Shown: positions 1-62,210, counted from the first letter of the stretch. The stretch: DNA of 64,000 bases from Aigarchaeota archaeon (GCA_025059745.1 JANXDH010000004.1:533646-597645), one strand, 5' to 3'. A program made the numbers and translations. Notes: a model not told the origin generated them from the letters alone.

Positions 1-378
1 CAAGAGTCTGGCGATCGCCTCCGCGGCAGACCCCTCAGGCAGCTCAACGTACGCCATGTTACCGCCGAGTTCAGATGCGAGGGGAACTACCGCCGAGACC
101 ACCACGGCACCGCTTTGAATCCTGTCTCTGACGGCCTTGATGACCTCATATATTCCGGTGAAGGGCACGGCGACGATTATCACCTCTGCATCTGTAACCG
201 ACTCCTCGTTAAGCCCTCCCTTTATCGGCCGATCGATCATCGAGTTCAACTCCTCGACGACACTCCTCGCGCGCTCCCCGGACCTCGACCCGATACTGAC
301 TTCGTGTCCAGCAACCGCCAGCCGTGCAGCTAATCCCTTACCCAGACCCGCAGTCCCGCCCAGAATCGCTATCCTCAA
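1..378 (-). CDS. fno: F420H2:NADP+ oxidoreductase (Fno/NpdG), N-terminal ~125 aa; 3' end lies beyond the window edge
   Basis: Reverse-strand translation from a TTG at 376-378 reads LRIAILGGTAGLGKGLAARLAVAGHEVSIGSRS...VVSAVVPLASELGG. It is colinear with archaeal Fno (GGTGxLGxGLAxRLAxxGHxVxxGSR Rossmann N-terminus). It is absent from the ORF track because it runs off the window and starts with TTG. Confidence 0.7.
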   Translation of the reverse strand, partial: MRIAILGGTAGLGKGLAARLAVAGHEVSIGSRSGERARSVVEELNSMIDRPIKGGLNEESVTDAEVIIVAVPFTGIYEVIKAVRDRIQSGAVVVSAVVPLASELGGNMAYVELPEGSAAEAIARLL

Positions 379-11628: not shown

Positions 11629-12777
11629 GTGAGTAGATGGAATAGTTTGGGGGTAGAACCCGAGACGTACGCGGAGAAGCTCGGTAGTATAAAGAGCGCC
11701 GTTTACAGTCTGTTCCACGTGTCTGATGTGAGATACGAGGCCGGAGTCCTCACCTTCATCACGGAGAAGGCCGACATCAAGGACGCCTTCAAGAGGTTGT
11801 ACAACGATCTAAAGCCGATGGGTTACGTCCCGACCGCTGAGAGAATGGGAGACTCGGTGGTCATAAAGATCTACCCCTTCAAACCCCCCAGGATAGGCAG
11901 CGCGAGGCTACCGTTGATACTAATGGCGGTCACCTGTACGACGGTCTTCATCGACGGGTTGCTCAGGTCGAACGGGATCTACAAGTACGCCTCAACGGTC
12001 TATGAAAACTTCAACGCTTGGTACTACGCAGCCCTCTTCACGGTCTCGCTGTTGGCTATCATAGGCATTCACGAACTAGGGCACAAGATAGTCGCTCGTA
12101 TGAGGAAGATCGACTCGACTCTCCCCTACTTCATACCCGGGATACCGGGGGAGATACCAACTTTCGGAGCTGTTATACTCCAGAAGGGTCCCTTGGTCAA
12201 CAAGGACGACCTCTTCGACCTCGGTATAAGTGGTCCCATCGCTGGGTTCGCCGTCAGTCTCCTCGTCCTCTTCTTAGCTTACTCAACGGCAATCTGGGTG
12301 CCCTATGGGACAGCAGAGGACTTGTACAGGTGGATGCAGAGCGAGGGAGGGATCTTCCTACCGAGGCCGTTCATCTTCGACATCTTCGAGAGCTTCTTGG
12401 GGAGGGACTCAGAGGTGCCCCTGATCGCCTTCACACCCTACGCGTTCCCGGCATGGCTGGGCATGCTGGTGACGGGACTGAACATGGTGCCCATATGGCA
12501 ACTGGACGGGGGCAGGGTAATGAGGGCTCTGGTCAGCAGGAGAGTTCACATGATATTGTCGTACGTGGGCGCCGTCTTCTTGTTCATCACTGGTTACGTT
12601 CTGATGGCGTTACTGCTCCTGTTACTTATGCGGAACACCATGGATCTGCAACCGCTCGATACGGTCTCCTCGCTATCCCTATCGAGGAAGCTGATCTTTC
12701 TGGGTGGACTCGTGATGCTCGCGGTGACCTTCGTAGCCCTCCCCAGCCCCTTCATTCCTCAATTAAGGGGTCAGTGA
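11629..12777 (+). CDS. site-2 protease family (M50) membrane zinc metalloprotease
   Basis: HELGH zinc-binding motif inside a TM helix and multiple hydrophobic segments. 382 aa. Confidence 0.8.
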   Translation: MSRWNSLGVEPETYAEKLGSIKSAVYSLFHVSDVRYEAGVLTFITEKADIKDAFKRLYNDLKPMGYVPTAERMGDSVVIKIYPFKPPRIGSARLPLILMAVTCTTVFIDGLLRSNGIYKYASTVYENFNAWYYAALFTVSLLAIIGIHELGHKIVARMRKIDSTLPYFIPGIPGEIPTFGAVILQKGPLVNKDDLFDLGISGPIAGFAVSLLVLFLAYSTAIWVPYGTAEDLYRWMQSEGGIFLPRPFIFDIFESFLGRDSEVPLIAFTPYAFPAWLGMLVTGLNMVPIWQLDGGRVMRALVSRRVHMILSYVGAVFLFITGYVLMALLLLLLMRNTMDLQPLDTVSSLSLSRKLIFLGGLVMLAVTFVALPSPFIPQLRGQ

Positions 12778-13759
12778 CGTAACCGTGCGGAATCAAGCAG
12801 ACTGAGAGACCCTTACCGTGCAGACGAGTGATGTAGTGAACTGAGTCCTGGATCGTATCGAACGATCGAAAACCGCAAACTCCCTCCACGTAGCTCTTCG
12901 GGAGCGGTGTCACCATGCCCACGTGATAGTTCTCCCTTACCCCTTTTACGCTCGTGGCCATCAGATAGTGATAACTCGACTCATCGTCCACTTCAGAGGT
13001 CAACAAGTACCTCAACAACTTCTCTGAACCGATGCCCTTCTCGCACTCAGTCACGAGTATGACCGTACCGGAGCCCTTTATGACACGGGAGGATAAGAGG
13101 AGCGCATTGATGCTCAGCATGAGGGTCTGGTCGAGCGGCTCACCGCCAACTGAAGCTATGACCGCGTCGTAACGTTTAGGTAACCTAGCGACGTAGGACC
13201 CGCCACCTGTCTCATCGGACGAGACGGACAGGAGTGATCCGTCCAGTCCGAAGGAGAGGCCCACGGTCGTCACCTCTAAGGAGGACGCCCACCTTGATAA
13301 CGCATCGGGCCATACGCCGACCATGCCCGAGACAGCCGTAATGAACCTCTGAGACGAACTCGAGAGACCACTGAGGGGTGTAGGTAAAGTCGGCACAATG
13401 AACGCCACACTCTTGATGTCTTTCAACAGATCACCTCTCTTTACGAAGTCATCCACCAGGTGGACCCCTTCCCTATCACTGAAGTCACGGATAATTACAT
13501 CACCCATTACCTCACCGACCCTCCAAGTACTGAGGAGGATCGGCCTCGTCTCGAGTTGAGATATGAGGTCCGCGTACGCCCTCAGTGGTAGGTAATCTAC
13601 GACAACCGCATCAGTACCCCTTGTCCTCTCCCGGACCTCTTCGACTACGTTCGAACTGATGTTCTCAGACCTTACTTGGGGTATCGCCGTGTAGACCTCA
13701 GCCTCATCGGGTAGATCGAACGAGTACTCGAATTTCCCCCTCCTCAACCAGTACTCCAA
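12752..13759 (-). CDS. hypothetical protein; N-terminus resembles LarA/DUF2088 (lactate racemase N-terminal) domain
   Basis: N-terminal pattern (YG..E..LPDEA.V...P) recalls DUF2088, but the protein is only 335 aa. Lies 14 bp downstream of gnd on the same strand. Weak assignment. Confidence 0.3.
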   Translation of the reverse strand: MEYWLRRGKFEYSFDLPDEAEVYTAIPQVRSENISSNVVEEVRERTRGTDAVVVDYLPLRAYADLISQLETRPILLSTWRVGEVMGDVIIRDFSDREGVHLVDDFVKRGDLLKDIKSVAFIVPTLPTPLSGLSSSSQRFITAVSGMVGVWPDALSRWASSLEVTTVGLSFGLDGSLLSVSSDETGGGSYVARLPKRYDAVIASVGGEPLDQTLMLSINALLLSSRVIKGSGTVILVTECEKGIGSEKLLRYLLTSEVDDESSYHYLMATSVKGVRENYHVGMVTPLPKSYVEGVCGFRSFDTIQDSVHYITRLHGKGLSVCLIPHGYVTDPLIEE

Positions 13760-13772
13760 CCATAGCTCGACC

Positions 13773-15170
13773 TCATGTCAGCCTCCAAGTGGAGTGGAAC
13801 TCGCCCTCTCTATCGGATCTCCTGAACCCGTGGGCCCCGAACAGGTCACGTATCGCCTGTATCAAGTTAGTAGGTAGACGCTCTGAGGTCATCATGAGGA
13901 AGTAGTTGAACGCCGATGAAATAACGGGTATCGGTAGGCCTGAGGACGCGGAGAGCCTGATGAACTCCTTCCATCTCTCCACCCTCTCGAGGGTACCCTT
14001 CGTGAAGATGGGTGTGCTGAAGAGGTACCTGCTACTCGATTCTTCCGACTCATATGCCGTCTGCACTATCTTAGACCGGATTATACAACCCGAGCGCCAG
14101 ACCCTTAACGCCCTGCGGGGCTCCGTCTGGTAACCGAGACTCTCGATGGCCGCGACCAGCATGGACAGGCCCTGCGAGTAACTCATCACGTACGTGCCGT
14201 AGAGCGCGGCCTCCGAGAGTCTTTCAGCGAGTAACCTTCCGATCCTCTCATATGTCAATCTAGGAAACGACTTACTCAGCGCCAACCTGTCGCCGCGTGA
14301 CGTCGATGCAATCCTCTCAGTTACTGCCGCGTCGATGGAGGGGGCCGGAACTCCGAGCCTCATGGCCTCCTCGCTCGCCCACATCCCCGTGCCCTTCTGT
14401 TCCGCCTCATCGACCACCTTCTCCACCAACTCGACCTCACTACCCTCCTCGCGGAACCTCAAGACCTGCGACGCGGCCTCTAGAAGGTAAGATCCGAGCT
14501 CACTACCGTTCCACTCGGAGAAGCAGTCAGCGATCTGACCGTTGCTGAGACCCCCCACCCTCCTCAGGAACTGATAGACCTCAGCTATGCCGCCGAGCAT
14601 GGCGTACTCTATGCCGTTGTGTACTATCTTCACGAAGTGCCCGGCTCCACCCCTCCCAAAGTACCCCTCGCATGAATCATCGTTATACTTGGCCGCGATC
14701 GACCGTAGGAGCTCCCTCACCTCGGCGTACCCAGTCTCATCTCCACCCACCATGATAGAAGGTCCTTTGAGCGCGCCCTCAACTCCACCACTCACACCGA
14801 CCCCTAGGAACCTGATACCCTCACGTAGGAGCTCCTCGTAACGTCTCTCGGTATCTCTGAAGTGGGAGTTCCCGAAATCGAGCACTATATCGCCCCTCGA
14901 GAGCAGTTTCTTCAGCTCAGCTACGTAGTCGTCTACGGGTTTGCCAGCCTTGACCATTAAGATTACGAGCCTTGGAGGACTCAGGGAATCTACGAACTCT
15001 CTAAGCTCCCTGTAGCCCCTCACCCTCAAACTCCCGCACTTCTCCTTAAGGAAACTCTCGACCTTCTCGTAAGTCCGGTTATAGAGCGAGACGGAGTACC
15101 CTCGACTCTCCACGTTGATCACTATGTTCTCCGCCATGGGACCCAGTCCTATGATGCCGACCTCTCCCAA
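13773..15170 (-). CDS. gnd: 6-phosphogluconate dehydrogenase, decarboxylating
   Basis: N-terminal IGLGPMAENIVIN Rossmann motif, 6PGDH catalytic domain, and C-terminal FGAHGFRRSD..GEFHSTW tail typical of Gnd. 465 aa. Confidence 0.9.
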   Translation of the reverse strand: MGEVGIIGLGPMAENIVINVESRGYSVSLYNRTYEKVESFLKEKCGSLRVRGYRELREFVDSLSPPRLVILMVKAGKPVDDYVAELKKLLSRGDIVLDFGNSHFRDTERRYEELLREGIRFLGVGVSGGVEGALKGPSIMVGGDETGYAEVRELLRSIAAKYNDDSCEGYFGRGGAGHFVKIVHNGIEYAMLGGIAEVYQFLRRVGGLSNGQIADCFSEWNGSELGSYLLEAASQVLRFREEGSEVELVEKVVDEAEQKGTGMWASEEAMRLGVPAPSIDAAVTERIASTSRGDRLALSKSFPRLTYERIGRLLAERLSEAALYGTYVMSYSQGLSMLVAAIESLGYQTEPRRALRVWRSGCIIRSKIVQTAYESEESSSRYLFSTPIFTKGTLERVERWKEFIRLSASSGLPIPVISSAFNYFLMMTSERLPTNLIQAIRDLFGAHGFRRSDREGEFHSTWRLT

Positions 15171-15283
15171 ACCAGACTAGCTCCGTGTACCTCATAAGAT
15201 AAATGTGTCAGTAATACGACCGGCTCTCAACTCGGATGGGAGGGTATTAAAACGTAATAAACGCCCGCTCCATTCCGACCCTC

Positions 15284-15661
15284 ATGCGTTACGTCAGGGC
15301 TAGGGACTTGGAGGAGAGAACCAAGCGGATGGTCGATGCCCTCGGTCTGAACCATATAGACCCCGAGAGGGTGATCTGCATCAGGAGTTACGGATCTCGG
15401 TCCAAGAGGACGCTCGCTAGGGTCCATGCACCCTCGAAGGCCGTACTCGCGGCCCTGAACATGAAGCCCGTCTACGTGATAGAGTTCATTGAAGAAGCAT
15501 GCAGGAGACTGACCGATGAGCAGCTGGAGGACGTTATTCTCCACGAACTGCTTCACATCCCCAAGTCGTTCAGTGGAGGCCTGCGTGGCCACGACGCTAG
15601 GTTCTCCTCGGAGTTAGAGAGTTACAGGAAGTTCCTCAGTAGAGCTCGCAGATACCGATGA
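15284..15661 (+). CDS. small predicted zinc metallopeptidase (HExxH; SprT/WLM-like minimal domain)
   Basis: HELLH motif in a 125-aa protein. The 3' end overlaps the convergent cyclase gene by 26 bp. Confidence 0.45.
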   Translation: MRYVRARDLEERTKRMVDALGLNHIDPERVICIRSYGSRSKRTLARVHAPSKAVLAALNMKPVYVIEFIEEACRRLTDEQLEDVILHELLHIPKSFSGGLRGHDARFSSELESYRKFLSRARRYR

Positions 15662-16304
15662 CCGTGCAAGGTGTGCTGTCAACCCCCTCTATTAATAGCG
15701 GAGCCACTATGACCAGATCGTAATAGTTATCCTTCCCCGCGAGCGCCATGTCCTCTATGATCAGGAGGTCGGGGGCCGACAGGAGAACTCTATGTGACCT
15801 CCATCCCTCATCTCTGTGACGCGGAGATCCTATGCTTATAGCGTCTGTGCCCACGCATCTGAGACGCGGATAGAACTTGATCAGGTACTTCGCGCCCTCC
15901 TCGGATATACACGGTCCATCGTTCGCGAACTTGACCGGATCGCTCACCGCCATGCGCTCGATACCAGTGCGTATCATGACTAAGCCCGACCTGGATATGG
16001 CCTGCTCATGCGCCTCGAGATCTCTTCTCGTTATCAGCTCCCCAGGTCCCTTGGGTACGTCTATAATGACTCCCCTCTTGAAGACTAACTCCTCCGGTCT
16101 GAAGTCCGAGATCGCTCGCCCCTCACCGTAGAAGTGTCTCTGGGCGTCCACGTGTGTTCCAACGTGGTTACCCAACATCATAGCGTAGCTGTTGCTCGTA
16201 TCCCCTGAGGAGATCTGACGCAACGGTGAGACCCTCAGAGGCATCATTCCGGGGTACACCGGAGTCCTCTCAGATAGGGTCTTTGATAATAGTGCCGCCT
16301 TCAA
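15636..16304 (-). CDS. cyclase-family metal-dependent hydrolase (kynurenine formamidase-like)
   Basis: HVGTHVDAQRHF motif (HxGTHxDxPxH of the PF04199 cyclase family). 222 aa. Confidence 0.8.
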   Translation of the reverse strand: MKAALLSKTLSERTPVYPGMMPLRVSPLRQISSGDTSNSYAMMLGNHVGTHVDAQRHFYGEGRAISDFRPEELVFKRGVIIDVPKGPGELITRRDLEAHEQAISRSGLVMIRTGIERMAVSDPVKFANDGPCISEEGAKYLIKFYPRLRCVGTDAISIGSPRHRDEGWRSHRVLLSAPDLLIIEDMALAGKDNYYDLVIVAPLLIEGVDSTPCTVIGICELY

Positions 16305-16370
16305 CTTTTCAATTCAATCCGTTCGTCGAGTTAAATAATTTTTCGATTCTCCACCTGAACGAGCTCGGTA

Positions 16371-16384
16371 AGGGTTTATATCTC
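16371..16384 (+). promoter_or_regulatory. TATA box (agggtttatatctc) for the Fgd-like gene
   Basis: Centred ~27 nt upstream of the GTG at 16403. Confidence 0.45.
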
Positions 16385-16402
16385 TAGGCCCCGGCCTTTG
16401 AG

Positions 16403-17449
16403 GTGAGTATGGTGACCAGATCGCTCCAGTTGGGGTACTGGGCCGCGCAAGAGCAGTACTCGCCGGACACTCTCTTGAAGTTTGCGATACGAGCGGAGAT
16501 AATGGGCTTCGACATCATAGTGACGAGCGATCACTTCCACCCATGGAGCGACACCGGTGGCCAAAGCGGTCATACGTGGATCTGGTTGGCGAGCGTGGCC
16601 GAGCGCACGAAGAAGGTCGAGGTCGGCACCGCGGTCACCACTCCCCTCTTCAGGTATCATCCCGCCATAGTGGCGCAGGCGTTCTCCACGCTCGACCACC
16701 TATATCCTGGGAGGATCTTCCTAACAGTCGGTACTGGACACGCGATGAATGAGGTGCCCTTAGGTTACTCCTGGCCGGGGTACAGAGAGAAGGTGGGTAG
16801 GTTGAAGGAGGCGATAGAGGTGATCAAACTCCTCTGGGAGGGTGACTTCGTGACGTATGAGGGCGAGTACTATAGGCTGAACACCGCAAAGCTCTACACG
16901 AAGCCCAAGAGCAAGATCAGATTATACGTCGCGACGTCCAATGAGAGAGTAGCCGAGATAGCAGGGACGCACACGGACGGGATCTTGACGAACCCGAGGG
17001 GACTAGAGAACCTTAAGGAGATAATCGAGTCGATGGAGAAGGCGGCCAGGCGCGCCGGGAGAGACCCGTCTACTCTGAGCAAGTGCATGGAGTTCAAGGT
17101 CTCCTACGACCTCGACTACCAGAGGGCACTAAGGGCGGCCAGTTTCTGGGCGCCGACCGCTATACCGAGGGAGAAGAGGGAGAAGGTCGCCGACCCAAGG
17201 GTTCTGGAATCTATGGTGACGGAGAAAGAGATAGAGAAGATAAAGCGGACCTGGCTGATAACGACGGACTCCGACGACATATTCAAGGCACTGGGGGATT
17301 TCCTGAAGCTAGGGTTCGATAGAGTATACATACATAGCGCCTCCCCCAACGAGGAGCGATTTCTGAACCTCCTAGGCAGGGAGATACTGCCTTGGATGAG
17401 GGAGTACTGGGAGGAGCTGAGGGCTCCTATCAGATCTGCGGCGGAGTGA
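16403..17449 (+). CDS. fgd: F420-dependent glucose-6-phosphate dehydrogenase family oxidoreductase (luciferase-like monooxygenase class, Fgd-like)
   Basis: Block-by-block similarity to actinobacterial Fgd1: LGYWAAQEQYSP, VTSDHFHPW, FRYHPAIVAQAF, LTVGTGHAMNE, GEYYRL, FWAP, WLITTDSDD. 348 aa. Confidence 0.7.
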   Translation: MSMVTRSLQLGYWAAQEQYSPDTLLKFAIRAEIMGFDIIVTSDHFHPWSDTGGQSGHTWIWLASVAERTKKVEVGTAVTTPLFRYHPAIVAQAFSTLDHLYPGRIFLTVGTGHAMNEVPLGYSWPGYREKVGRLKEAIEVIKLLWEGDFVTYEGEYYRLNTAKLYTKPKSKIRLYVATSNERVAEIAGTHTDGILTNPRGLENLKEIIESMEKAARRAGRDPSTLSKCMEFKVSYDLDYQRALRAASFWAPTAIPREKREKVADPRVLESMVTEKEIEKIKRTWLITTDSDDIFKALGDFLKLGFDRVYIHSASPNEERFLNLLGREILPWMREYWEELRAPIRSAAE

Positions 17450-17450
17450 T

Positions 17451-18608
17451 CTAAGACGTTACGGAGTGGTGCCACCTCAGGATGTACTCCGGTAACTTCA
17501 GTCCCCTCTCCTGTAGTTTGTAGACCAGTAGGAGCGGTATGGGGCTGGAGGCGAACGCGGCCTTAAGATAGAAGTCATTGGGACCACCATCGAAGGAGTT
17601 GGATGGTATGTAGTACGAATAGTCCGAAAGGGCCTCTATCGTTGATCCCTTGGTACCGACTATTGATGCGACGACGCCCCCCATCTTCTTGAAGTTCTTA
17701 CACCACGCGGCAACGACCTCTATCTCTCCGCTCTGAGATATGACCAATAAGAGATCTCCAGCCCTCGGTGAGGGCGTGCTCGCGTCCCCTGCGACATAGA
17801 CCTGGTCCCCTATGGCCCTCTTCACGTGTCCCAACCTCACTGCGGTCATTCTGGCTACCTCCCTGCTGCTCCCTAAACCGGCAAGGAAGCAGACGTGCCT
17901 TTTCTCGAGCATATCGACGACGGTCTTCATGAAGTCCGATCTCACGACGTCCTCCACCACCTTCGTCACCTCCGAGGTGAAAGACGCTATGTACTCACGG
18001 ATCTGACTGGCCGGCGCGTCCCTGTTCAAGGTCTCGGCCAACCCATAGAGGAACAGGAGACCTCCGAGAATGAAGACGTCCTCTAATATACCAACTGATC
18101 TGAACTCGACGGTATCGATCTTGTCTTCACTGAGCTCCCTCCCCTTCAGGACCATGAGTGTGCCGTACTTGTAACCGAGTTTACCTAGCGGAGACTCCGG
18201 GTCACTCGTTATCACGTCTATCTTATGGTCCTTATAGTTCTCGGACTTGGCGATCAATAACGCGAGCTTTTGAGCGTCGATCAGCGGTAGGAGAGACTTC
18301 CCGCTACCGGAGAGTATTAGGAGCGAGATCTGCCCGAATCGTCTCCTCAACGTGGGCGCGGCCTCGTCTATATGCCTCGCGGGGAAGCCTATGTCACCCC
18401 TATCGATGACCACCTTACCGTTCTTCATCTTAGCTAGCTCGCTACAGAATATGCTCAGGGCACCCTTCGTCCTCCCCTCAGCGCTTGGTACTATAACGCC
18501 GGAACTCCTGATATCGGTATAGATGTCCTCGGTCGCCTTGTTGTCCAGTTCGTACAGATTGTTTACGATTTTGTTGATGAAACCAATCGAGGCGGAAATT
18601 TCACCCAT
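17451..18608 (-). CDS. double SIS-domain sugar-phosphate isomerase/deaminase (GlmS-C / AgaS / PGI-PMI-like)
   Basis: The C-terminal half matches the SIS/6-phospho-3-hexuloisomerase pattern (GLGSSREVARMTAVRLGH..DLLLVISQSGEIEVV..). The N-terminal half carries a second SIS-like core (ISLLILSGSGKS...VITSDPESPLGKLG). 385 aa. Confidence 0.6.
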   Translation of the reverse strand: MGEISASIGFINKIVNNLYELDNKATEDIYTDIRSSGVIVPSAEGRTKGALSIFCSELAKMKNGKVVIDRGDIGFPARHIDEAAPTLRRRFGQISLLILSGSGKSLLPLIDAQKLALLIAKSENYKDHKIDVITSDPESPLGKLGYKYGTLMVLKGRELSEDKIDTVEFRSVGILEDVFILGGLLFLYGLAETLNRDAPASQIREYIASFTSEVTKVVEDVVRSDFMKTVVDMLEKRHVCFLAGLGSSREVARMTAVRLGHVKRAIGDQVYVAGDASTPSPRAGDLLLVISQSGEIEVVAAWCKNFKKMGGVVASIVGTKGSTIEALSDYSYYIPSNSFDGGPNDFYLKAAFASSPIPLLLVYKLQERGLKLPEYILRWHHSVTS

Positions 18609-19420: not shown

Positions 19421-20325
19421 TACTCAGCCCTGTTTACTACCTCGAGGAAGACGTCCTCCAGAGTGAGAGGAGATATGGTGGCTTTTGCTCCGTTACTTAC
19501 AGCTATCTCCGCCAACTCCCTCGCACCCCTCAGGTCGGTATAGACCCTCACAATCGAGCCCAGTACGATACAACGCCCGTAACCCCTGACAAGACTCAGG
19601 TCTAGACGTGACGTCTCGAGGTCAACCCTCATTTTCTTCTCGATCCTAGCCTTCAACTCTTGAACTGAAAAGGACGCTAGGACCCTTCCGGCCTCCAAAA
19701 TGGCTACGCTATCCGAGAGGACCTCAGCCTCTTCCATATCGTGGGTCGTCAATAGGACGGTCCTACCCTCACGAACAGACTTCCTAACGACCTCCCACAC
19801 TCTGTGCTTGCTAACAGGATCTAGACCTATCGTAGGTTCATCGAGGAAGAGTAGATCGGCCTCGGACGCCAACGCCATCCCGACAAGCACGCGCCTCCTC
19901 AAGCCGCCTGAGAGGTTGGAGGCTGGAACGTTCATGTAATCTGAGAGTTCCAGGTCTTTTAAGTAGCTCCTCGCCCGCTCCCTCGCCTCACTACGTCCTA
20001 TCCCCCGTATGTTCAGGTAATAGTAGACGTGTTCCCACGGCGTGCAGAGGTGCAGGGGATGTGACTCCTGGGGCACAACGGCCACCCTCTCCCTAACCAT
20101 CTTAGCCTCCCTCTCAACGTCATATCCCAATACCCTTAACTCACCCTTGGTCTTTCTGAGCTGTGTGGCCGCTATCCTCACGAAGGTCGTCTTCCCCGCT
20201 CCATTTCTACCCAGCAAGGAGACTACCTGTCCCCTCATGACCTTCAAGGAGAAGTCCTCAAGTGCCCATCTGAGACCGTCGTAGGTCTTATAAAGTCTTG
20301 TCGCCTCTATGGCGATCTCACTCAT
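19420..20325 (-). CDS. ABC transporter ATP-binding protein (ABC-2/DrrA-like)
   Basis: Walker A LLGRNGAGKTT, ABC signature LSGGLRRRV, and Walker B LLFLDEPT. ATGA overlap with the upstream GcvH/TusA gene. Confidence 0.9.
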   Translation of the reverse strand: MSEIAIEATRLYKTYDGLRWALEDFSLKVMRGQVVSLLGRNGAGKTTFVRIAATQLRKTKGELRVLGYDVEREAKMVRERVAVVPQESHPLHLCTPWEHVYYYLNIRGIGRSEARERARSYLKDLELSDYMNVPASNLSGGLRRRVLVGMALASEADLLFLDEPTIGLDPVSKHRVWEVVRKSVREGRTVLLTTHDMEEAEVLSDSVAILEAGRVLASFSVQELKARIEKKMRVDLETSRLDLSLVRGYGRCIVLGSIVRVYTDLRGARELAEIAVSNGAKATISPLTLEDVFLEVVNRAE

Positions 20326-20999
20326 GTCTTCTTTATGAGGACGTGTGCCAACTTCTGTTCGATTCTAAAATCGAGCACAACGTTCCCCGTAAATTCAGAC
20401 CACTGTCGTAACTGTTCATCTGAACCAGGGCTGTATTCTGCGACCACGTGGACAACCTCTCCTGGAGGTATAGAATTTATCATATCAGAGAGTACCATCA
20501 GTACCTGAGCGCAATCTACGCCTATCGCGGCGTAGACGTGATCCGGTACGTGATCGAAGCACATCAAACCTCTCCTCTTTGAGTCCTCAGCGACCCTATC
20601 AGATATCTCATCCCATTTTTGGAGGGAGCTGATTGAGCCTCTATCCAGTACCTCCGCCTCATAGATCCACCCGTCCTCGTAGTCCCCTATTTGTAAACGA
20701 TGTGGGTTATCCGACACGCCTTCATTGACCCTCAATATCCTGAGTCCTATAGGTGAGTGCACGTTACCGAGAAATTTGCGCCCTTCAATCATGAACAACA
20801 CCCCCTCGGGTTCTATGACCGTCCCCTCCCCCTTCAGCTTGATCCTTCTGATCTTGCCAAAGAGGGCCTGCGTGATAGGGAGTAGTCCTAAGCGAGAGAT
20901 AGAACCGTCCCTTACCTCGAACCACAAGTTACGCTCATAACTGTAGAGAAGATCTTCCCTATACTTACATCCTTGGATCACGTTAGCCCCTGCAGACAT
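20322..20999 (-). CDS. fusion protein: GcvH-like (lipoyl-domain fold) N-terminal domain + TusA-like sulfur-carrier C-terminal domain
   Basis: The N-terminal ~125 aa align with glycine-cleavage H protein, including a Lys at the lipoyl-lysine position (MIEGRKF vs AESVKAAS) and the GWI[FY] C-terminal motif. The C-terminal ~75 aa align with TusA (IGVDCAQV vs LGLRCPEP, PGEVV, LIKK). Confidence 0.6.
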   Translation of the reverse strand: MSAGANVIQGCKYREDLLYSYERNLWFEVRDGSISRLGLLPITQALFGKIRRIKLKGEGTVIEPEGVLFMIEGRKFLGNVHSPIGLRILRVNEGVSDNPHRLQIGDYEDGWIYEAEVLDRGSISSLQKWDEISDRVAEDSKRRGLMCFDHVPDHVYAAIGVDCAQVLMVLSDMINSIPPGEVVHVVAEYSPGSDEQLRQWSEFTGNVVLDFRIEQKLAHVLIKKT

Positions 21000-21057
21000 C
21001 CAACTGACATCATCTGTTATGCGGAGAAATAAAAAGGTAAAAAAGCAGGCCTGTAAA

Positions 21058-21900
21058 TTAACGCTCTATCGGTAGGCCCACCACGTTGCCCCACTCGGAC
21101 CAACTACCGTCATAGTTCCGTACTTTCGGATACTTCAACAGATACTTCAGTACGAACCAAGTCACGGATGACCTCTCACCTATTCGACAGTAGGTGATGA
21201 CCTCCTTATCGGGCGTTATCCCTAAAGACTCATAGAGCCTCCTCAGCTCCTCAACTGACTTGAAGGTCCCGTCCTCGTTTATGGCCTTTGCCCACGGTAC
21301 GTTCACGGCACCCGGGATGTGGCCACCCCTCTGCGCGTGTTCAGTCGGATACTCCGGTGGCGCTAAAATTTTACCAGCGTACTCGTCAGGAGATCGTACG
21401 TCAACCAAGCACACGTTCGTACTCCCCAGTCTAGATCTTACGTCGGGTAATAGTATTCTATACTCGTAGTTGACCCTCGTGACTTTGTACCTAGTCTGCT
21501 TATTACTCGGTACGTCTTTCACTAACGGCCTCTCCTCCTCGATCCACTTTCTCCTACCCCCGTCCATCAGGCTCACCCTCTTGTGGTCGTATAGCTTGAA
21601 GACCCAGAACGCGAACGAAGCGAACCAGTTGTTGAAGTCGCCGTAGAGCACAACCCACGTCTCATTCGATATCCCGTTCCTCTCCATTAACTTCTCGAAA
21701 CCCTCCTTGCTGACGATATCCCTCTCGAGCTCATCGTTTATATCCCTCTTCCAATCTATGAGCGTAGCGCCTTCTATGTGACCTTGGTGATAGGCCGCCG
21801 TGGGTTCGTAATCGACCTCCACCACCCTTACGTTATCAGCCTTTCTGTTGTTCCAAACCCAGTCTGTCGTCACTAAAGGAGGTGATTCTTCGGTAGACAT
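21058..21900 (-). CDS. thiosulfate sulfurtransferase (tandem rhodanese domains)
   Basis: Two rhodanese domains. Catalytic loop CRIGERSS (CRxGxR, TST-type). 280 aa. Confidence 0.85.
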   Translation of the reverse strand: MSTEESPPLVTTDWVWNNRKADNVRVVEVDYEPTAAYHQGHIEGATLIDWKRDINDELERDIVSKEGFEKLMERNGISNETWVVLYGDFNNWFASFAFWVFKLYDHKRVSLMDGGRRKWIEEERPLVKDVPSNKQTRYKVTRVNYEYRILLPDVRSRLGSTNVCLVDVRSPDEYAGKILAPPEYPTEHAQRGGHIPGAVNVPWAKAINEDGTFKSVEELRRLYESLGITPDKEVITYCRIGERSSVTWFVLKYLLKYPKVRNYDGSWSEWGNVVGLPIER

Positions 21901-51629: not shown

Positions 51630-54260
51630 TTACTCCGGTTGGTGGGGCCTGTGCCTCAAGTAGATCAAGGTCATCAAGGCCGCCACGATAGATATTAAGA
51701 GGACGCTGTACGGCCCGAGGGGGACAGTACGCCTCTGTGGTGAGGTCGTTGGGTCTATTGAGGATTCGCTCCTCAAACCCCCGAAGGTGATTGTCAAGGA
51801 CTTACCGTAGGGCGAGACTGGACCGAGACGGACGACACCGTCCCAGCTCGTTACACCCTCTGACTCTACGAACCCGTCCTCTCTGCTTACGGTCACAGAG
51901 AGCATGGGGGCGGGGAGATGGAACAGGTCCTTCAGAGTGAACTCTATGTAGTAGAGCCTCACCCCCACCCTTACCTCCCCCGAAGCCGCATCGACCGATC
52001 TCTGGTCCGTGACGTCGGCCCCTCTCCATATCGACCTCTGGACAGTCCATCTGCCTTCCCTCAACCATATTATACTCCCAGAATGATGAGATACGAATTC
52101 CCCGCCAGGTCCTATGAGTTCAAAGGTCACCGAACCCGAGGTGCCTGTGCGCGGCTCCTCGATAAGCAGGGACAGGACCTCCTTGACGTAACGAGCGGTT
52201 AGCGATAACGGGCGCGTGACCACCGCTGAGACGTTCACGAGCTCTGTGATCAGGTCACCGCTCCAGTGCCTGAAGGAGAGACGCTCCCGATCGCTCAAGT
52301 AGATGAACTCCGGCGCACTGAACGACACCTCTGAGCCCTGAGTGACCCAGAACCTCTGGGACTTTAGGGGTTCGGGATAGTTTATCGATATTAGGTGCTC
52401 TAGGGTCCAGATTGCTCGTACCCTCATCGGTCTATCCACTCTCACCTCGACCACCCTCTCGACAGAGGTGACGTCACCCTCCCACTTCTTGAAGATCGCC
52501 CGAGTAGAGTCCGATAGGTAACTGATCTGATCGGCAGAGACGATGGCCCTTGACCCCATGAGGTACCATCCCTCACCGCTGACTGATCCGACGCCGGATA
52601 TTAGGTCGAGGTAGTACTCCACGTCGTACCTCGCGATAGCGGTGATGGGCCTGACGACCCTGACCTCCAAGACCGTAGACCTGAGGTTGAGGCCACCCTC
52701 CCAAGACCTGAATACGGCTCTGGTCATGTTATCCCACTCAATATATCGAGGGTACTCGATCGTCAGCGTATCTCCCCTATCGATCCAGACGGTTTTATTG
52801 AGGTTGCCGTGAGTCGACCAGAGGGAGACTAGGTACTGCGTCGTCCACTCGGCGTACAGTCTCTTCGGCCCGTCGATCAACAGTCGCACCCTCGGTCCTT
52901 TCATCGCGTAATCTCCGGTGAATCCCGAGAGCTGGATCCTGGTCATGTTCATAAGGTCCACCGTAGACGGTTCTACCCACACCTCGGCTACTCCCCCCTC
53001 ATCGTACCAACCAGCACCGCGGGTGCTGCCATGTGCGGTGAATACGTCAACCTTGAATTGCCTCACCCACGTCGCGGTGACCTCGACAGGCCCTCTGACG
53101 ACGATCCTCAGTGTGTTTATCGTGGAGCCGAATGTACCGACCCACCTATCGAACCTTAACCTAGAGACCTCGCTTATCGGGACTACGCTGGGAACCTCTA
53201 AGTCTATAATGCTCTCCCTATCGAACCAATCAGTTAAGTCCCTCGTGAAGGTCCCGGCCACCCTAACCAGATATTGGGTCCTATAGTCTTGAACGACCTC
53301 CATGTGGTATCTCGGTCTGATTACTATCTCAGGAGAACTCGAGACGGCCCTTCCACCGATCGACCATCCGATGAACCTCATCCTAGTTGAACTATCGACA
53401 CCTACGATCTCATCACTCCTAAGAGTGATGGACTGACCAGGCTCGACGAGGAGTACTTCTAAAGGTATGAGGCCACTACCATCCACCCTGCGATAGATCT
53501 TGACGGAGAGCTTGATCGGGTACCCCTGTACGTCGAGCAGATAGAACATCGGTATCTCGGCTGGCAGGGTGACCCTCGACGGTACGTTCTCAAAGACGTT
53601 CGTAGCCATCCAGCGGTAAGCTACGGCCAGTGAATAGAGCTCAAGCGTGGACGGCCTGCTACCAGGGACCACGTACCTACACATTATGCTCCTGCAGTTC
53701 GTGGTGTGACCTATGCCGAGCGCGTGGGCGAATTCGTGGGCCGCCACCACCTTCGTGATCTCCTCATCGCCCCTCGTACACGACAACGAGATAGCTATGG
53801 ACGCGTTCACTATCTCCGTCCCCGCCCTGAAGATGTAGGCGACACCGCAGATACCCGAGCCCAACGTCTCAACGTACCTCATCCTGATGTCTCCCGAAGA
53901 ACCGTTAACGCCGTAGATCAGCACGTTGATCTTGAGCTCCTCCAAGTAGTTGTAACCGAAGAGAGCGGTGAATATCGGTATGGCGGTGATCCACCACCTC
54001 ACGCCCTCCGCCGCCCAGACCGTGTAAGCGTGTTCCTGGTGGGGATAGATGAGAACGTTCAGTTCCCTCTTCCTCCAAGAGCCCAGCAGATCTATCACGC
54101 CATCCTCTTGTCTCTGTTCGGTGAGGTTCGCGGGAGGACTCTCGTAGGTGATCGCGTGTGAGGACGATTGAAAGTCGTGGCCACCGTCAACAGGATGAAG
54201 AATAAGTATCACGAAAACAATTAAAATGAGCGTGATCGGTACCGCTCTCAAACACCTCAA
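51630..54260 (-). CDS. secreted, C-terminally membrane-anchored metzincin-type zinc metalloprotease with ~6 tandem beta-repeat domains
   Basis: N-terminal signal peptide, HEFAHALGIGH (HExxHxxGxxH), then ~65-aa repeats each with F-x2-W-x-G ... GxGWY motifs (InlB B-repeat-like). C-terminal TM helix PLGPYSVLLISIVAALMTLIYL. 876 aa. Confidence 0.65.
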   Translation of the reverse strand: MRCLRAVPITLILIVFVILILHPVDGGHDFQSSSHAITYESPPANLTEQRQEDGVIDLLGSWRKRELNVLIYPHQEHAYTVWAAEGVRWWITAIPIFTALFGYNYLEELKINVLIYGVNGSSGDIRMRYVETLGSGICGVAYIFRAGTEIVNASIAISLSCTRGDEEITKVVAAHEFAHALGIGHTTNCRSIMCRYVVPGSRPSTLELYSLAVAYRWMATNVFENVPSRVTLPAEIPMFYLLDVQGYPIKLSVKIYRRVDGSGLIPLEVLLVEPGQSITLRSDEIVGVDSSTRMRFIGWSIGGRAVSSSPEIVIRPRYHMEVVQDYRTQYLVRVAGTFTRDLTDWFDRESIIDLEVPSVVPISEVSRLRFDRWVGTFGSTINTLRIVVRGPVEVTATWVRQFKVDVFTAHGSTRGAGWYDEGGVAEVWVEPSTVDLMNMTRIQLSGFTGDYAMKGPRVRLLIDGPKRLYAEWTTQYLVSLWSTHGNLNKTVWIDRGDTLTIEYPRYIEWDNMTRAVFRSWEGGLNLRSTVLEVRVVRPITAIARYDVEYYLDLISGVGSVSGEGWYLMGSRAIVSADQISYLSDSTRAIFKKWEGDVTSVERVVEVRVDRPMRVRAIWTLEHLISINYPEPLKSQRFWVTQGSEVSFSAPEFIYLSDRERLSFRHWSGDLITELVNVSAVVTRPLSLTARYVKEVLSLLIEEPRTGTSGSVTFELIGPGGEFVSHHSGSIIWLREGRWTVQRSIWRGADVTDQRSVDAASGEVRVGVRLYYIEFTLKDLFHLPAPMLSVTVSREDGFVESEGVTSWDGVVRLGPVSPYGKSLTITFGGLRSESSIDPTTSPQRRTVPLGPYSVLLISIVAALMTLIYLRHRPHQPE

Positions 54261-54313: not shown

Positions 54314-55327
54314 GTGGACGCACCAAAGCTCGCGGTCTATGCGAGCCACTCGGCTCTACAGATAATCACCGGTGGAAGGAGAGAGGGGCTAAACGTCACG
54401 CTCTTTGGACCGGCGGAGAGGCTGACTTTCTATCGGAGGTTTAGGGCCCTGCAAATGAGTACGCTGGAGTGCACCAACGAGGACTGCATAGAGAAGTTAA
54501 ACTCTCTGAGTGACCACGTGGTCGTTCCAAACGGTAGTCTGGTGGAGTACGTCGGTGCAAAGAACGTCCTAGAGTTGAAGACGCCCCTCATCGGCTCGAA
54601 GGGTCTCTTGTGGATCGAGAGCCGCTGGAACCGGAAGATGAACCTCCTGATGGACGCCGGTCTACCGGTCCCCAAGTGGTTCTCGAGACCCGAGGAGGTA
54701 GACAGGTTGGTCATAGTGAAGTTGCCTGGCGCGAAGGGCGGGCGGGGATACATACTGACGGACTCACCCGGAGAGATAAACGAGTCCCTGAGGGAGTACG
54801 TGAGAAAGGGTATCATAAGCGACGCATCGGAGGCCTACATACAGGAGTACGTCGTCGGTATCCCGGTCTACGCCCACTACTTCATGAGTCCCATAATGAA
54901 CAGATTAGAGATAACGGGATTCGATGTGAGATACGAGACGAACGTCGACGGCCTCAGGCGTCTGAGCCACAGGAGAGCCGCTGAGATCAAACCTAGCTTC
55001 GTCGTAGGGGGCAACTTTCCGGTATATTTACGTGAGAGCCTCATAGAAACGTACATAGAGTGCGGTGAGAGGTTCGTCGAGGCCACCGGAAGGTATCTGG
55101 GGAAACCCGTCGTGGGCCCGTTCTGCCTCGAGTCCGTGGTGACCGAGGACCTGACGCCGGTCTTCTTCGAGTTCTCAGGGAGGATAGTCGCAGGTACCAA
55201 CGTATACATGGACGGGAGTCCTTACCTCGAGTTTTACTGGGGTGAGAGGATGAACGTGGGCCAGAGGATCGCGAGGGAGGTGAGGCTCGCGGCAGAACAG
55301 GGTCGCATCGATGAGGTGGTGACCTGA
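54314..55327 (+). CDS. purP: 5-formaminoimidazole-4-carboxamide ribonucleotide (FAICAR) synthetase PurP (ATP-grasp)
   Basis: Colinear with archaeal PurP: YASHSALQI, VVPNGSLVEYVG, GSKGLLWIESRW, KLPGAKGGRGY, YETNVDGL, YLRESL, VGPFCLE, AGTNVYMDGSPY, GQRIAREV. 337 aa. Confidence 0.85.
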   Translation: MDAPKLAVYASHSALQIITGGRREGLNVTLFGPAERLTFYRRFRALQMSTLECTNEDCIEKLNSLSDHVVVPNGSLVEYVGAKNVLELKTPLIGSKGLLWIESRWNRKMNLLMDAGLPVPKWFSRPEEVDRLVIVKLPGAKGGRGYILTDSPGEINESLREYVRKGIISDASEAYIQEYVVGIPVYAHYFMSPIMNRLEITGFDVRYETNVDGLRRLSHRRAAEIKPSFVVGGNFPVYLRESLIETYIECGERFVEATGRYLGKPVVGPFCLESVVTEDLTPVFFEFSGRIVAGTNVYMDGSPYLEFYWGERMNVGQRIAREVRLAAEQGRIDEVVT

Positions 55328-55454
55328 TCTGAGGACCATATCCATCTCATGCATCGCGAGCCACTCTGCCCTCGACGTATTCGATGGGGCGAAGGACGAG
55401 GGTTTCCGGACAATTGCGCTCTGCCAGGTCGGGAGGTCCAAGGTCTACCAGACA

Positions 55455-56384
55455 GTGAGAGAGACGGTGGACGAGTGTCTTGTATTACCGAATTACGCGA
55501 AGATCATCGAGGACGAGGTCCAGGCCGAGCTGTTGGGGAAGGACGCGGTGATAGTGCCCAATCGCAGCATGGCCGTCTATGTAGGATACGACAGGATAGA
55601 GGAGAGGCTTAGGGTCCCTGTATTCGGTAACAAGAAGATGCTGAGGTGGGAGGAGCGAGTCGGCGGGAAGAACTACTACGCGCTGCTCGACTCCGCAGGC
55701 ATTCGAAGGCCGAGGGTGATGAGGATCGAGGAGGTCGACGGTCCAGTGATATTGAAGGTCCAGGAGGCCATGAGGGAGCAGGAGAGGGCCTTCATAATAG
55801 CCTCTGACAGAGAGGACCTAGAGCGTAAGATAGAGTCTATGAGGTCTAGGAACCTCATCAGCGAGGAGACGCTGAGACGCTCGGTCATCGAGGAGCTCGT
55901 ACTTGGTGCACACTTCAACATAAATTACTTCTACAGCGTCGTCAGAAGGAGGTTGGAGATAGTAAGCATAGACCGGCGCATACAGTCTAACTTGGACGGA
56001 CTCCTCCACCTTCCAGCGAGGGATCAGCTCGACCTCCGGGCACCCGTCCGCATGATCGAGGTTGGTCACGTCCCCGTCAGCCTCAGGGAGAGCCTCTTGG
56101 AGGAGGCGATGGAGATCGGTGAGAGGTTTGTGGATGCCACACGCAGATTAGAACCGCCCGGCATAATAGGTCCCTTCACCCTACAGGTGATGGTGTCGCC
56201 CGATCTGAAGATGATCGTCTATGACGTCGCGACTAGGATAGGCGGTGGTACCAACGCGCAGATGGGGATAGGCGGACAGTACTCTAAGCTCTTCCTTAGA
56301 AAGGCGGTCTCTATGGGCCGTAGGATATGTATTGAGTTGAGGGAGGCTCTAGAGTCGAGCGCTTTGACCTCTGTTACAAGTTAA
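55455..56384 (+). CDS. purP: PurP paralog (FAICAR synthetase family); annotated from the first in-frame canonical start, which truncates the conserved N-terminus (possible frameshift/pseudogene)
   Basis: Same motif set as the upstream paralog (VVPNRSMAVYVG, GNKKMLRWEER, YESNLDGL, SLRESL, IGPFTLQ, GGTNAQMGIGGQY). Conserved IASHSALDVFDGAKDEGF is encoded in-frame upstream (55341-55454) without an ATG/GTG/TTG. Confidence 0.6.
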   Translation: MRETVDECLVLPNYAKIIEDEVQAELLGKDAVIVPNRSMAVYVGYDRIEERLRVPVFGNKKMLRWEERVGGKNYYALLDSAGIRRPRVMRIEEVDGPVILKVQEAMREQERAFIIASDREDLERKIESMRSRNLISEETLRRSVIEELVLGAHFNINYFYSVVRRRLEIVSIDRRIQSNLDGLLHLPARDQLDLRAPVRMIEVGHVPVSLRESLLEEAMEIGERFVDATRRLEPPGIIGPFTLQVMVSPDLKMIVYDVATRIGGGTNAQMGIGGQYSKLFLRKAVSMGRRICIELREALESSALTSVTS

Positions 56385-57861: not shown

Positions 57862-58914
57862 TTGGGTAAGTTAAAGGCCGCAGTTCTCGGTGCGACTGGC
57901 ATGGTCGGCCAGATCTATCTCCAGCTCCTCTCAAGACATCCGTGGTTCGAGCTCTCAGCGGTCACAGGCAAGTCTAACGTGGGCAAGAAGCTGGTAGAAG
58001 CCTACAGGGGTAAGGGGTGGGTACCTCCTGAGTACGCCGACATCGAGGTGTTGCCCACAGACCCATCGAAGGTCGACGCTGACGTGGTCTTCAGCAGCCT
58101 ACCGACACCTGTAGCGAGGGAGGTCGAACCTAAGTTCGCGGAGGCCGGTCTTCCAGTGGTGAGCGATGCGTCCGCGTACAGGATGGCACCAGACGTACCG
58201 CTCATAGTCCCGGAGATAAATGAGGATCACCTGGCATTGATAGAGTTACAGAAGAGGAACAGGCGATGGGACGGTTACATAGTGACCACTCCGAACTGCA
58301 CTACTGTCGGACTCGTCATGCCATTGAAAGCGCTACACGACGCGTTCACTCTCAGGTACGTCAACGCGGTCTCCATGCAAGCCGTATCCGGCGCAGGGTA
58401 CGCAGGTGTACCATCGATAGCCATAATGGGGAACATCATACCGTATATAGACGGTGAGGAGAGAAAGGTCATCGAGGAGCCGAGGAAGATACTGGGCACT
58501 CTAAAGGACGGCAACATCATACCCGCTGAGGTGTCTATCGACGCTACCTGCACGAGGGTGCCGACTCTTTACGGACACCTGATATCCGTTACCGCGGAGC
58601 TTGAGCGCGACTTCACTATCGATCGTGTCGTAGACTCTTTCAGTTCGTTCAAGGGTAAGCCCCAGTTACTCGAGCTGCCGACCGCACCATCAAGACCGAT
58701 CGTGGTTCTAACTGAGGATGATAGACCCCAACCGAGGATTGACGTAGAAGTCGGTGACGTAAAGGGGATGAGCGTCTCGGTAGGCAGGATAAGGAAGGGC
58801 GTGAACGAGAGAACGCTCCTGTTCGTCACTTTGAGTCATAACCTGATAAGGGGCGCTGCCGGTATAGCGATACTGACTGCTGAACTCTTAAAAGTCGGTG
58901 GGTGGTTGGATTAG
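57862..58914 (+). CDS. asd: aspartate-semialdehyde dehydrogenase
   Basis: AAVLGATGMVGQ NAD(P) motif, active-site Cys region (TTPNCTTVGLV), and C-terminal dimerisation domain. 350 aa. Confidence 0.9.
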   Translation: MGKLKAAVLGATGMVGQIYLQLLSRHPWFELSAVTGKSNVGKKLVEAYRGKGWVPPEYADIEVLPTDPSKVDADVVFSSLPTPVAREVEPKFAEAGLPVVSDASAYRMAPDVPLIVPEINEDHLALIELQKRNRRWDGYIVTTPNCTTVGLVMPLKALHDAFTLRYVNAVSMQAVSGAGYAGVPSIAIMGNIIPYIDGEERKVIEEPRKILGTLKDGNIIPAEVSIDATCTRVPTLYGHLISVTAELERDFTIDRVVDSFSSFKGKPQLLELPTAPSRPIVVLTEDDRPQPRIDVEVGDVKGMSVSVGRIRKGVNERTLLFVTLSHNLIRGAAGIAILTAELLKVGGWLD

Positions 58915-62203: not shown

Positions 62204-62210
62204 GAGGTGT

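Follow-up and report, generated by a model that had tools for sequence, protein, structure and literature searches.

An archaeal luciferase-like dehydrogenase subfamily linked to 6-phosphogluconate dehydrogenase: a plausible F420-linked oxidative branch in Aigarchaeota

The DNA analyzed here is a 64,000-nucleotide stretch from an Aigarchaeota archaeon (GCA_025059745.1 JANXDH010000004.1:533646-597645), hereafter called the window, which is identical in sequence to part of contig JAVQTN010000001.1 from an Aigarchaeota/Caldarchaeales hot-spring metagenome-assembled genome (GCA_033581295.1). A neighborhood of about 6 kb in the window encodes a luciferase-like (LLM) dehydrogenase, a decarboxylating 6-phosphogluconate dehydrogenase (Gnd), a cyclase-family hydrolase, and a phosphosugar isomerase with two SIS-like domains (SIS2). 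The odds that this neighborhood constitutes an archaeal F420-linked oxidative branch, leading from hexose 6-phosphate to ribulose 5-phosphate, are in our judgment about even. The first-pass annotation of the window had proposed such a route from glucose 6-phosphate (G6P), and its interpretation is partly supported: the gene set is a plausible archaeal variant of a known pathway, with a hexose 6-phosphate as the presumed substrate of the LLM protein. All five open reading frames that it had named, encoding Gnd, the LLM protein, the cyclase-family protein, SIS2, and a LarA-like protein, were recovered at the coordinates given below.

Conservation of the neighborhood among relatives is the strongest evidence supporting a functional module. 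One genome per GTDB species was scanned using the LLM-clade alignment as the query, and one metagenome locus and SIS-centered look-ups were added, which gave 25 related loci with usable flanks. The SIS2 gene directly follows the LLM gene in convergent orientation in 19 to 20 of these loci, including those of Conexivisphaerales and soil lineages. The cyclase gene is divergent from the LLM gene at a distance of ≤1 kb in 13 loci and lies within 6 kb in two more, and gnd is found within 2.4 kb of the LLM gene in 7 loci. The gene order varies. In the window and in locus L086 it is gnd, a SprT-like gene, cyclase, LLM, and SIS2; L004 has an LLM-gnd tandem; the Terraquivivens loci (L015 to L017) and L166 have the order cyclase, LLM, SIS2, and gnd, with gnd and SIS2 divergent; and L024 has a cyclase-gnd tandem 6 kb from the LLM gene. 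Because the pairings recur over Caldarchaeales, Terraquivivens, Conexivisphaerales, and soil lineages, at LLM identities of 60 to 75% and in altered gene order, the clustering goes beyond chance, and the four genes proved to be co-conserved in related Nitrososphaerota in several arrangements. The next most recurrent neighbor, an ABC-transporter ATPase gene, occurs in 6 loci including the window, and every other family occurs in 5 or fewer. The fetched flanks of more distant LLM clades, including those of true bacterial Fgd, contained no SIS2, cyclase, or gnd neighbors. A metagenome scan with the Gnd protein alone gave no match, and when it was repeated with a Gnd alignment, generic Gnd sequences (approximately 40% identity) dominated the output, with only L086 being informative.

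Other genes adjoin the LLM gene in some lineages. In three Calditenuis-like loci (L018, L019, and L021), a gene for an Fe/Mn superoxide dismutase lies directly upstream (~700 bp) on the same strand, which is reminiscent of the link between Fgd/F420H2 and oxidative-stress defense in mycobacteria. In L009 to L011, the gene directly upstream of the LLM gene, in the same orientation, encodes an aldo-keto reductase, with ABC-transporter genes further upstream in L009 and L011; in L049 the reductase gene adjoins the LLM gene on the opposite strand.

The gnd gene (13773 to 15170, minus strand) encodes a decarboxylating, NADP-type enzyme of 465 amino acids that scores 481 bits on TIGR00873 (cutoff, 427) and matches both PF03446 and PF00393. 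The NRT cofactor motif (N31-R32-T33) and the catalytic residues K181, N185, and E188 are present and invariant, and the earlier description of this gene as canonical is thus confirmed. At the window edge (1 to 378, minus strand) lies the truncated 5′ part of npdG/Fno, which encodes an NADPH-dependent F420 reductase; the full-length gene, taken from the parent contig, reaches 187 bits on TIGR01915 (cutoff, 150), consistent with the first-pass assignment. The presence of Fno indicates that the organism uses F420. As a member of the module itself, Fno was rejected, being 16 kb distant and absent from the vicinity of the LLM gene in all related loci. Beyond the window start, a gene for a PGM/PMM/GlmM-like mutase follows Fno on the parent contig (L085, 13065 to 15132), and a PGI/PMI-type isomerase gene with SIS and bact-PGI_C domains begins approximately 7 kb past it (L085, 22161 onward). 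Family scans of the 64-kb window revealed no classical G6PD, Pgl, or HPS and no F420-biosynthesis families, in agreement with the earlier remark that no classical 6-phosphogluconolactonase is visible there.

The LLM gene (16403 to 17449, plus strand) encodes a protein of 348 amino acids (345 in GenBank), which belongs to the broad family of F420-dependent LLM dehydrogenases, with scores of 235 bits on TIGR03557 (cutoff, 210) and 183 bits on PF00296. Its best PDB matches are 3B4Y, 5LXE, and 1RHC, followed by 9HAV as the fourth closest, an entry for which a literature search found nothing. With residues numbered as in Mycobacterium tuberculosis Fgd1, the subfamily has a fixed signature of E13, H40, W44, T76, H109, R198, K232, R259, E/D260, and T/S283, in which H109, R198, R259, E/D260, and T/S283 hold without exception over 23 genomic loci and approximately 83 cluster representatives (≥59% identity). 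In Fgd1, Glu13, His40, and Trp44 touch the C1 hydroxyl of G6P, and Lys232 binds citrate, a competitive inhibitor, with its equivalent being Phe, Trp, or Cys in fHMAD, Adf, and Mer. All four of these residues are kept in the window clade. The phosphate-ligand positions 198 and 259 are occupied by invariant Arg, and in Adf, fHMAD, 9HAV, and other archaeal paralogues they are hydrophobic or absent. The lid segment contains further conserved basic residues (Arg256 and Lys258), a one-residue deletion is present in the TSGK loop at Arg198, and position 177 is Ser or Ala, as in FSD and the reconstructed sugar-6-phosphate ancestor, with Met in Adf. In the archaeal paralogues that come next in similarity (≤52% identity), position 109 is Glu and the pockets are hydrophobic and heterogeneous. 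Because of the kept and basic residues and the differing nearest paralogues, the subfamily is sharply bounded, with a predicted pocket built for an anionic polar substrate, and its members are candidate sugar-6-phosphate dehydrogenases.

Comparison with characterized relatives places these features in context. The actinobacterial Fgd proteins (Fgd1, 3B4Y; Rhodococcus jostii Rh-FGD1, 5LXE) share with the window protein the TIM-barrel LLM fold, TIGR03557 membership, approximately 38 to 40% identity, residues Glu13, His40, Trp44, Thr76, Asn112, and Lys232, and basic residues at positions 198 and 259. The gene for Rh-FGD1, too, reportedly lies between gnd and a G6P isomerase gene; however, the isomerase partner of actinobacterial Fgd is a classical PGI, and that in the window is a PHI-like double-SIS protein. 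FSD of Cryptosporangium and Nocardioides (DH3 of Mascotti et al. 2018) has in common with the window clade the small residue Ser177 and a presumed hexose-6-phosphate pocket, but it possesses the full K198/K259/R283 triad and Glu109 and clusters with Fgd, none of which applies to the window clade. Adf, the F420-dependent secondary alcohol dehydrogenase of Methanoculleus (1RHC), and the archaeal "DH1" paralogues fall on the same side of the tree as the window clade, whereas the hydrophobic pocket of Adf (Ala198, Trp232, Met177, and Asn283) differs from the Arg198, Lys232, Ser177, and Arg259 of the window clade.

In the route considered here, the LLM protein would oxidize the C1 hydroxyl of G6P or a very similar aldohexose 6-phosphate and transfer the hydride to F420. 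The resulting 6-phosphogluconolactone may open spontaneously at high temperature or may be hydrolyzed by the cyclase-family hydrolase. The NADP-dependent Gnd, in line with its family assignment, would then decarboxylate 6-phosphogluconate to ribulose 5-phosphate, and Fno, similarly assigned by family and encoded elsewhere on the contig, would equilibrate F420H2 with NADPH. SIS2 may interconvert fructose 6-phosphate and the hexose phosphate of the route in a reaction like that of PGI or of 6-phospho-3-hexuloisomerase (PHI).

Several observations weigh against this route. The genes of the cluster alternate in orientation and make up at least four transcription units, so that they are not co-transcribed; the single neighborhood described by the first-pass annotation therefore holds in that its clustering recurs in relatives, but it is not an operon. 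The gnd gene adjoins the LLM gene in just about one-third of the loci. The contig already encodes the PGI/PMI-type isomerase with SIS and bact-PGI_C domains, so SIS2 need not be a PGI, and the literature search found no published lactonase of the cyclase family. A 2021 review of F420 also describes no definitive experimental evidence for F420 production or a role of F420 in TACK archaea. The LLM protein itself scores 287 bits on the Fgd equivalog TIGR03554, well below the cutoff of 420, and its clade-mates score 279 to 310 bits, a range that includes the 305 bits of an unrelated Bathyarchaeia paralogue. In a distance-based neighbor-joining tree of 85 sequences with 100 bootstraps, the window clade and the bacterial clade of Fgd/FSD type were never recovered as sisters (0 of 100). 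Glu109, which hydrogen-bonds the F420 ring in Fgd1, is replaced by an invariant His, and Arg283 is replaced by Thr or Ser. The triad Lys198/Lys259/Arg283 has been described as strictly conserved among proteins with FGD activity, and the R282Q substitution in Rh-FGD1, at the position of Arg283, lowered kcat/Km from 57,000 to 0.67 M−1 s−1 (PMC5352752).

Further data agree that the LLM protein, as judged from its sequence, does not qualify as a strict Fgd. Its similarity to M. tuberculosis Fgd1 and Rh-FGD1 (266 bits each) hardly exceeds that to Adf (252 bits), and triad-bearing proteins from Chloroflexi, Dormibacterota, Nocardioides, and alphaproteobacteria score 482 to 498 bits on TIGR03554. The window clade and the bacterial Fgd/FSD-type clade were each monophyletic in all 100 bootstraps, and the former was placed with Adf, 9HAV, and assorted archaeal paralogues, a position matching the basal "DH1" assemblage described by Mascotti et al. 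2018. The bacterial clade has Glu109 and the phosphate triad without exception, and position 109 is Glu in all sequences outside the window clade except for two with Ala. The window clade instead has Arg198, Arg259, and Thr/Ser283, that is, basic residues at two of the three triad positions, together with Glu in place of His260, the TSGK-loop deletion, and an archaeal host. The phosphate-binding residues expected of an Fgd are thus incomplete, and the label of Fgd-family G6PD, read as orthology to Fgd, fails on equivalog score, similarity, tree position, and residues. The protein is better regarded, on the alignments, as a Nitrososphaerota-specific subfamily that is related to bacterial Fgd/FSD and lies outside their clade.

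The main rival explanation, which is possible although we doubt it, is that the LLM protein is an F420-dependent dehydrogenase for another anionic alcohol or sugar derivative, that the gnd linkage reflects shared regulation or inherited gene order, and that 6-phosphogluconate comes from another route. This would fit the position outside the Fgd/FSD clade with a score below the equivalog cutoff, the missing R283, and the E109H and H260E replacements fixed across the whole clade, as well as the numerous archaeal "K15510" paralogues with heterogeneous pockets and the superoxide dismutase or aldo-keto reductase genes beside the LLM gene in some lineages. However, in its basic R198, K232, and R259 and its small side chain at position 177, the clade is like sugar-phosphate enzymes and unlike Adf, and the linkage with gnd and a phosphosugar isomerase gene survives several rearrangements.

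The cyclase-family gene (15636 to 16304, minus strand) is divergent from the LLM gene and encodes a protein of 222 amino acids. The PF04199 match (86 bits, sufficient for Pfam membership) and the intact metal motif HxGTHxDxxxH...H...E, which is invariant in 37 archaeal relatives, bear out its description as a cyclase-family metal hydrolase. Between the two genes lies a 98-bp intergenic region (16305 to 16402) with A/T-rich, TATA-like elements toward each gene, which may serve as a divergent promoter; a scan with bacterial-type promoter and terminator models, which are ill suited to archaea, found sites no more frequently than in shuffled sequence. The protein scores 51 bits on the arylformamidase model TIGR03035, below the cutoff of 223, and belongs to a small archaeal subfamily paired with the LLM gene. 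Among solved structures, it is closest to uncharacterized metal-dependent hydrolases and kynurenine formamidases, and it shares the PF04199 fold and the metal motif with KynB, 1R61, 8HMO, and MJ0783. Its distant relatives occur in polysaccharide clusters of the sugar-acid type and not in those of tryptophan catabolism. Gene linkage and plausible chemistry make the cyclase-family protein a candidate 6-phosphogluconolactonase. For the haloarchaeal oxidative pathway, too, no lactonase has reportedly been identified.

Three of the distant cyclase homologues (33 to 36% identity) were found in L169, L170, and L171, within polysaccharide or ulosonic-acid-type sugar clusters. Their companions include CMP-sugar synthetase-like, HpcH aldolase, GFO/IDH oxidoreductase, and SIS genes, and sugar derivatives are possible substrates for this cyclase branch.

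The SIS2 gene (17451 to 18608, minus strand) is convergent with the LLM gene and encodes 385 amino acids. Sequence profiles detect one SIS domain only, at residues 211 to 337, which is closest to PHI; the score on TIGR03127 (HxlB) is 79 bits over the C-terminal half, with a cutoff of 160. A profile comparison of the N- and C-terminal halves showed no similarity, and a Pfam search at E = 10 found nothing in the N-terminal half. An AlphaFold (AF2) model with a pLDDT of 86.6 and a pTM of 0.88 shows two alpha/beta domains, and Foldseek matched it over its full length to GlmS isomerase domains, AgaS-like proteins, and GlmD (probability, 1.0; TM, 0.5 to 0.6). The earlier description as a two-SIS-domain isomerase thus stands by predicted fold, whereas only the C-terminal SIS domain is seen by sequence. 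The family is compact (~385 amino acids, 57 to 100% identity), is confined to Nitrososphaerota, and carries inconsistent database labels (hxlB, GutQ, and "SIS domain protein"). As the sole PGI of the organism, SIS2 is ruled out by the isomerase gene with SIS and bact-PGI_C domains on the same contig, and its predicted reaction is either PGI-like or PHI-like.

The resemblance of SIS2 to PHI raises the alternative, which we regard as improbable, that SIS2 is a 6-phospho-3-hexuloisomerase linked to the ribulose monophosphate (RuMP) pathway, acting with PGI, the LLM protein, and Gnd in a cyclic route from formaldehyde to CO2 or marking two alternative ribulose 5-phosphate routes grouped together. 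The C-terminal domain has PHI proteins as its closest relatives (HxlB and the PDB matches 9LJ9, an HPS-PHI fusion, MJ1247, and YckF), the family consensus retains the PHI-like GE..TP and SxSGET motifs, JGI labels many members hxlB, and HPS-like genes have been reported in some Aigarchaeota. However, SIS2 falls well short of the HxlB cutoff, an HPS gene is absent from the window and from every related locus, and in L167 and L168 the SIS2 gene has no LLM gene nearby and follows rhodanese and GcvH/TusA-like genes. In addition, PHI is a single SIS domain of ~180 amino acids that works with HPS, whereas SIS2 is a tandem protein with a divergent N-terminal SIS-like domain and no HPS partner. An amino-sugar module, in which SIS2 would be a glucosamine-6-phosphate deaminase/isomerase, the cyclase-family protein an amidohydrolase, and the LLM protein a dehydrogenase of an amino-sugar phosphate, is very improbable. 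By structure, SIS2 matches GlmS isomerase domains and glucosamine-6-phosphate deaminases best, the double-SIS fold is also common to GlmS, GlmD, and AgaS, amide hydrolysis (kynurenine formamidase) is the best-known activity of the cyclase family, and an acidic residue is fixed at LLM position 260. The fold matches do not discriminate, however, because GlmS dominates the double-SIS structures in the PDB; by sequence SIS2 is similar to PHI and not to GlmS (14 to 22 bits), and an amino-sugar module would leave the gnd linkage unexplained.

The rhodanese and GcvH/TusA-like genes directly precede the SIS2 gene in the two Calditenuaceae loci (L167, 5429 to 6961; L168, 5362 to 6955). In the window, a tandem-rhodanese gene and a gene for a 225-amino-acid GcvH-like protein, TusA-like in its C-terminal part, are found upstream of the SIS2 gene (20322 to 21900, minus strand). 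The pairing suggests a possible connection with a sulfur relay or a lipoate-protein system.

Two further genes are interspersed in the neighborhood. The LarA-like gene (12752 to 13759, minus strand; 335 amino acids) lies 14 bp downstream of gnd, as the first-pass annotation had noted, and the protein matches the LarA C-terminal domain (PF21113, 33 bits), but the LarA_N part of that assignment was not borne out, with no match to PF09861/LarA_N even at E = 10. Scores on the LarA equivalogs (NF033504 tested) are 41 to 48 bits, against cutoffs of 460 to 500. A single-sequence AlphaFold model was unusable (pLDDT, 34), and the family profile used in its place aligns only with LarA residues 232 to 417. 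The protein is ~90 residues shorter than LarA racemases, its C-terminal domain is the only homologous part, and the LarA catalytic core cannot be aligned with it. In LarA, the LarA_N domain reportedly supplies the catalytic and Ni-binding His residues and the Lys that tethers NPN. The LarA-like family has no invariant His or Lys, and in the window protein the substrate residues Tyr294, Gln295, and Lys298 of LarA are replaced by Met, Leu, and Asn. It is a tiny, fast-evolving family of 319 to 361 amino acids, with approximately 12 cluster representatives among 1.84 billion proteins, and its gene follows gnd in just three closely related lineages. Because every catalytic hallmark of LarA is missing, the protein is a poor candidate for the stand-in lactonase that it had been proposed to be, and it was rejected as a lactonase or racemase; it looks like a degenerate or repurposed LarA relative. 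The SprT-like gene (15284 to 15661, plus strand; 125 amino acids), a sixth gene overlooked earlier, encodes a zinc-metallopeptidase-like protein with an HELLH motif (PF18894, "phage metallopeptidase"). It lies between gnd and the cyclase gene, with its 3′ end overlapping that of the cyclase gene by 26 bp, occupies the same spot in L004 and L086, and is probably unrelated to the pathway. Both genes are probably passengers. Such unrelated genes, together with the alternating orientations and the lack of an operon, would suit an assembly of chance neighbors without functional connection, but this idea is largely refuted by the synteny counts and hardly credible, as the pairings recur over diverse lineages despite altered gene order and SIS2, cyclase, and gnd are by far the commonest neighbors, ahead of the ABC-transporter ATPase.

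The idea of an F420-dependent oxidative pentose phosphate pathway in these archaea, presented in the first-pass annotation as an unusual variant, is not new. It was published in 2015 as a genome inference, missing lactonase included: Beam et al. 2015 (PMC4681859) described an Aigarchaeote that has the oxidative pathway save for the lactonase, a G6P dehydrogenase (G6PDH) using F420, and F420 biosynthesis. Hua et al. 2018 recorded gnd in four of six Aigarchaeota bins, with K00036 (G6PD) and K01057 (Pgl) in none. The label "F420-dependent G6PDH" is routinely applied to archaeal proteins via K15510 in JGI annotation and in several papers, with up to 12 copies per genome, and in the 2021 F420 review, the Fgd entry for "Thaumarchaeota?" bears a question mark. 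Relative to this literature, the present analysis adds that the proteins are not Fgd orthologues by curated criteria and form one signature-defined subfamily, that this subfamily, and not the other "K15510" paralogues, is linked to gnd, and that two partner genes can be named, those of the candidate lactonase and the phosphosugar isomerase.

Other parts of the window contain genes of different pathways. An archaeal DKFP-type shikimate pathway cluster (57862 to 63503, plus strand) comprises genes for an aspartate-semialdehyde dehydrogenase, a DeoC-type ADH synthase, a type II DHQ synthase, DHQase, shikimate dehydrogenase, and EPSP synthase, and chorismate synthase is next, just past the window end. 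Two PurP-like (DUF1246/DUF1297) paralogues lie in tandem at 54314 to 56384 (plus strand). A protein of 876 amino acids encoded at 51630 to 54260 (minus strand) has only a faint Peptidase_M10 match and is otherwise unannotated.

Pentose synthesis in most archaea is held to proceed without an oxidative branch, which has been shown experimentally only in haloarchaea, where the G6PDH is of the SDR type. The pathway of Haloferax volcanii (Azf and GndA) resembles that proposed here in combining a non-classical G6PDH with a canonical Gnd; however, it uses an SDR with NAD+ and was shown experimentally, whereas that predicted from the window would use an LLM protein with F420. Among the many loosely labeled "F420 G6PDH" proteins, the present work distinguishes a single orthologous subfamily whose pocket is sugar-phosphate-like and whose linkage to gnd is conserved, and it also calls for caution in annotation, as the curated criteria for Fgd do not warrant the KEGG/JGI label "F420-dependent G6PDH" on these proteins. 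A bolder reading, which we think unlikely, is that the LLM protein is an independently specialized F420-dependent hexose-6-phosphate dehydrogenase (His109, Arg198/Arg259, and no Arg283) that arose outside bacterial Fgd/FSD, that the cyclase-family protein is the long-missing archaeal 6-phosphogluconolactonase, and that together with Gnd and the tandem PHI-like isomerase they complete an F420-driven oxidative pentose phosphate pathway. If such a complete and independent route were true, it would represent the first defined physiological role of F420 in non-methanogenic TACK archaea.

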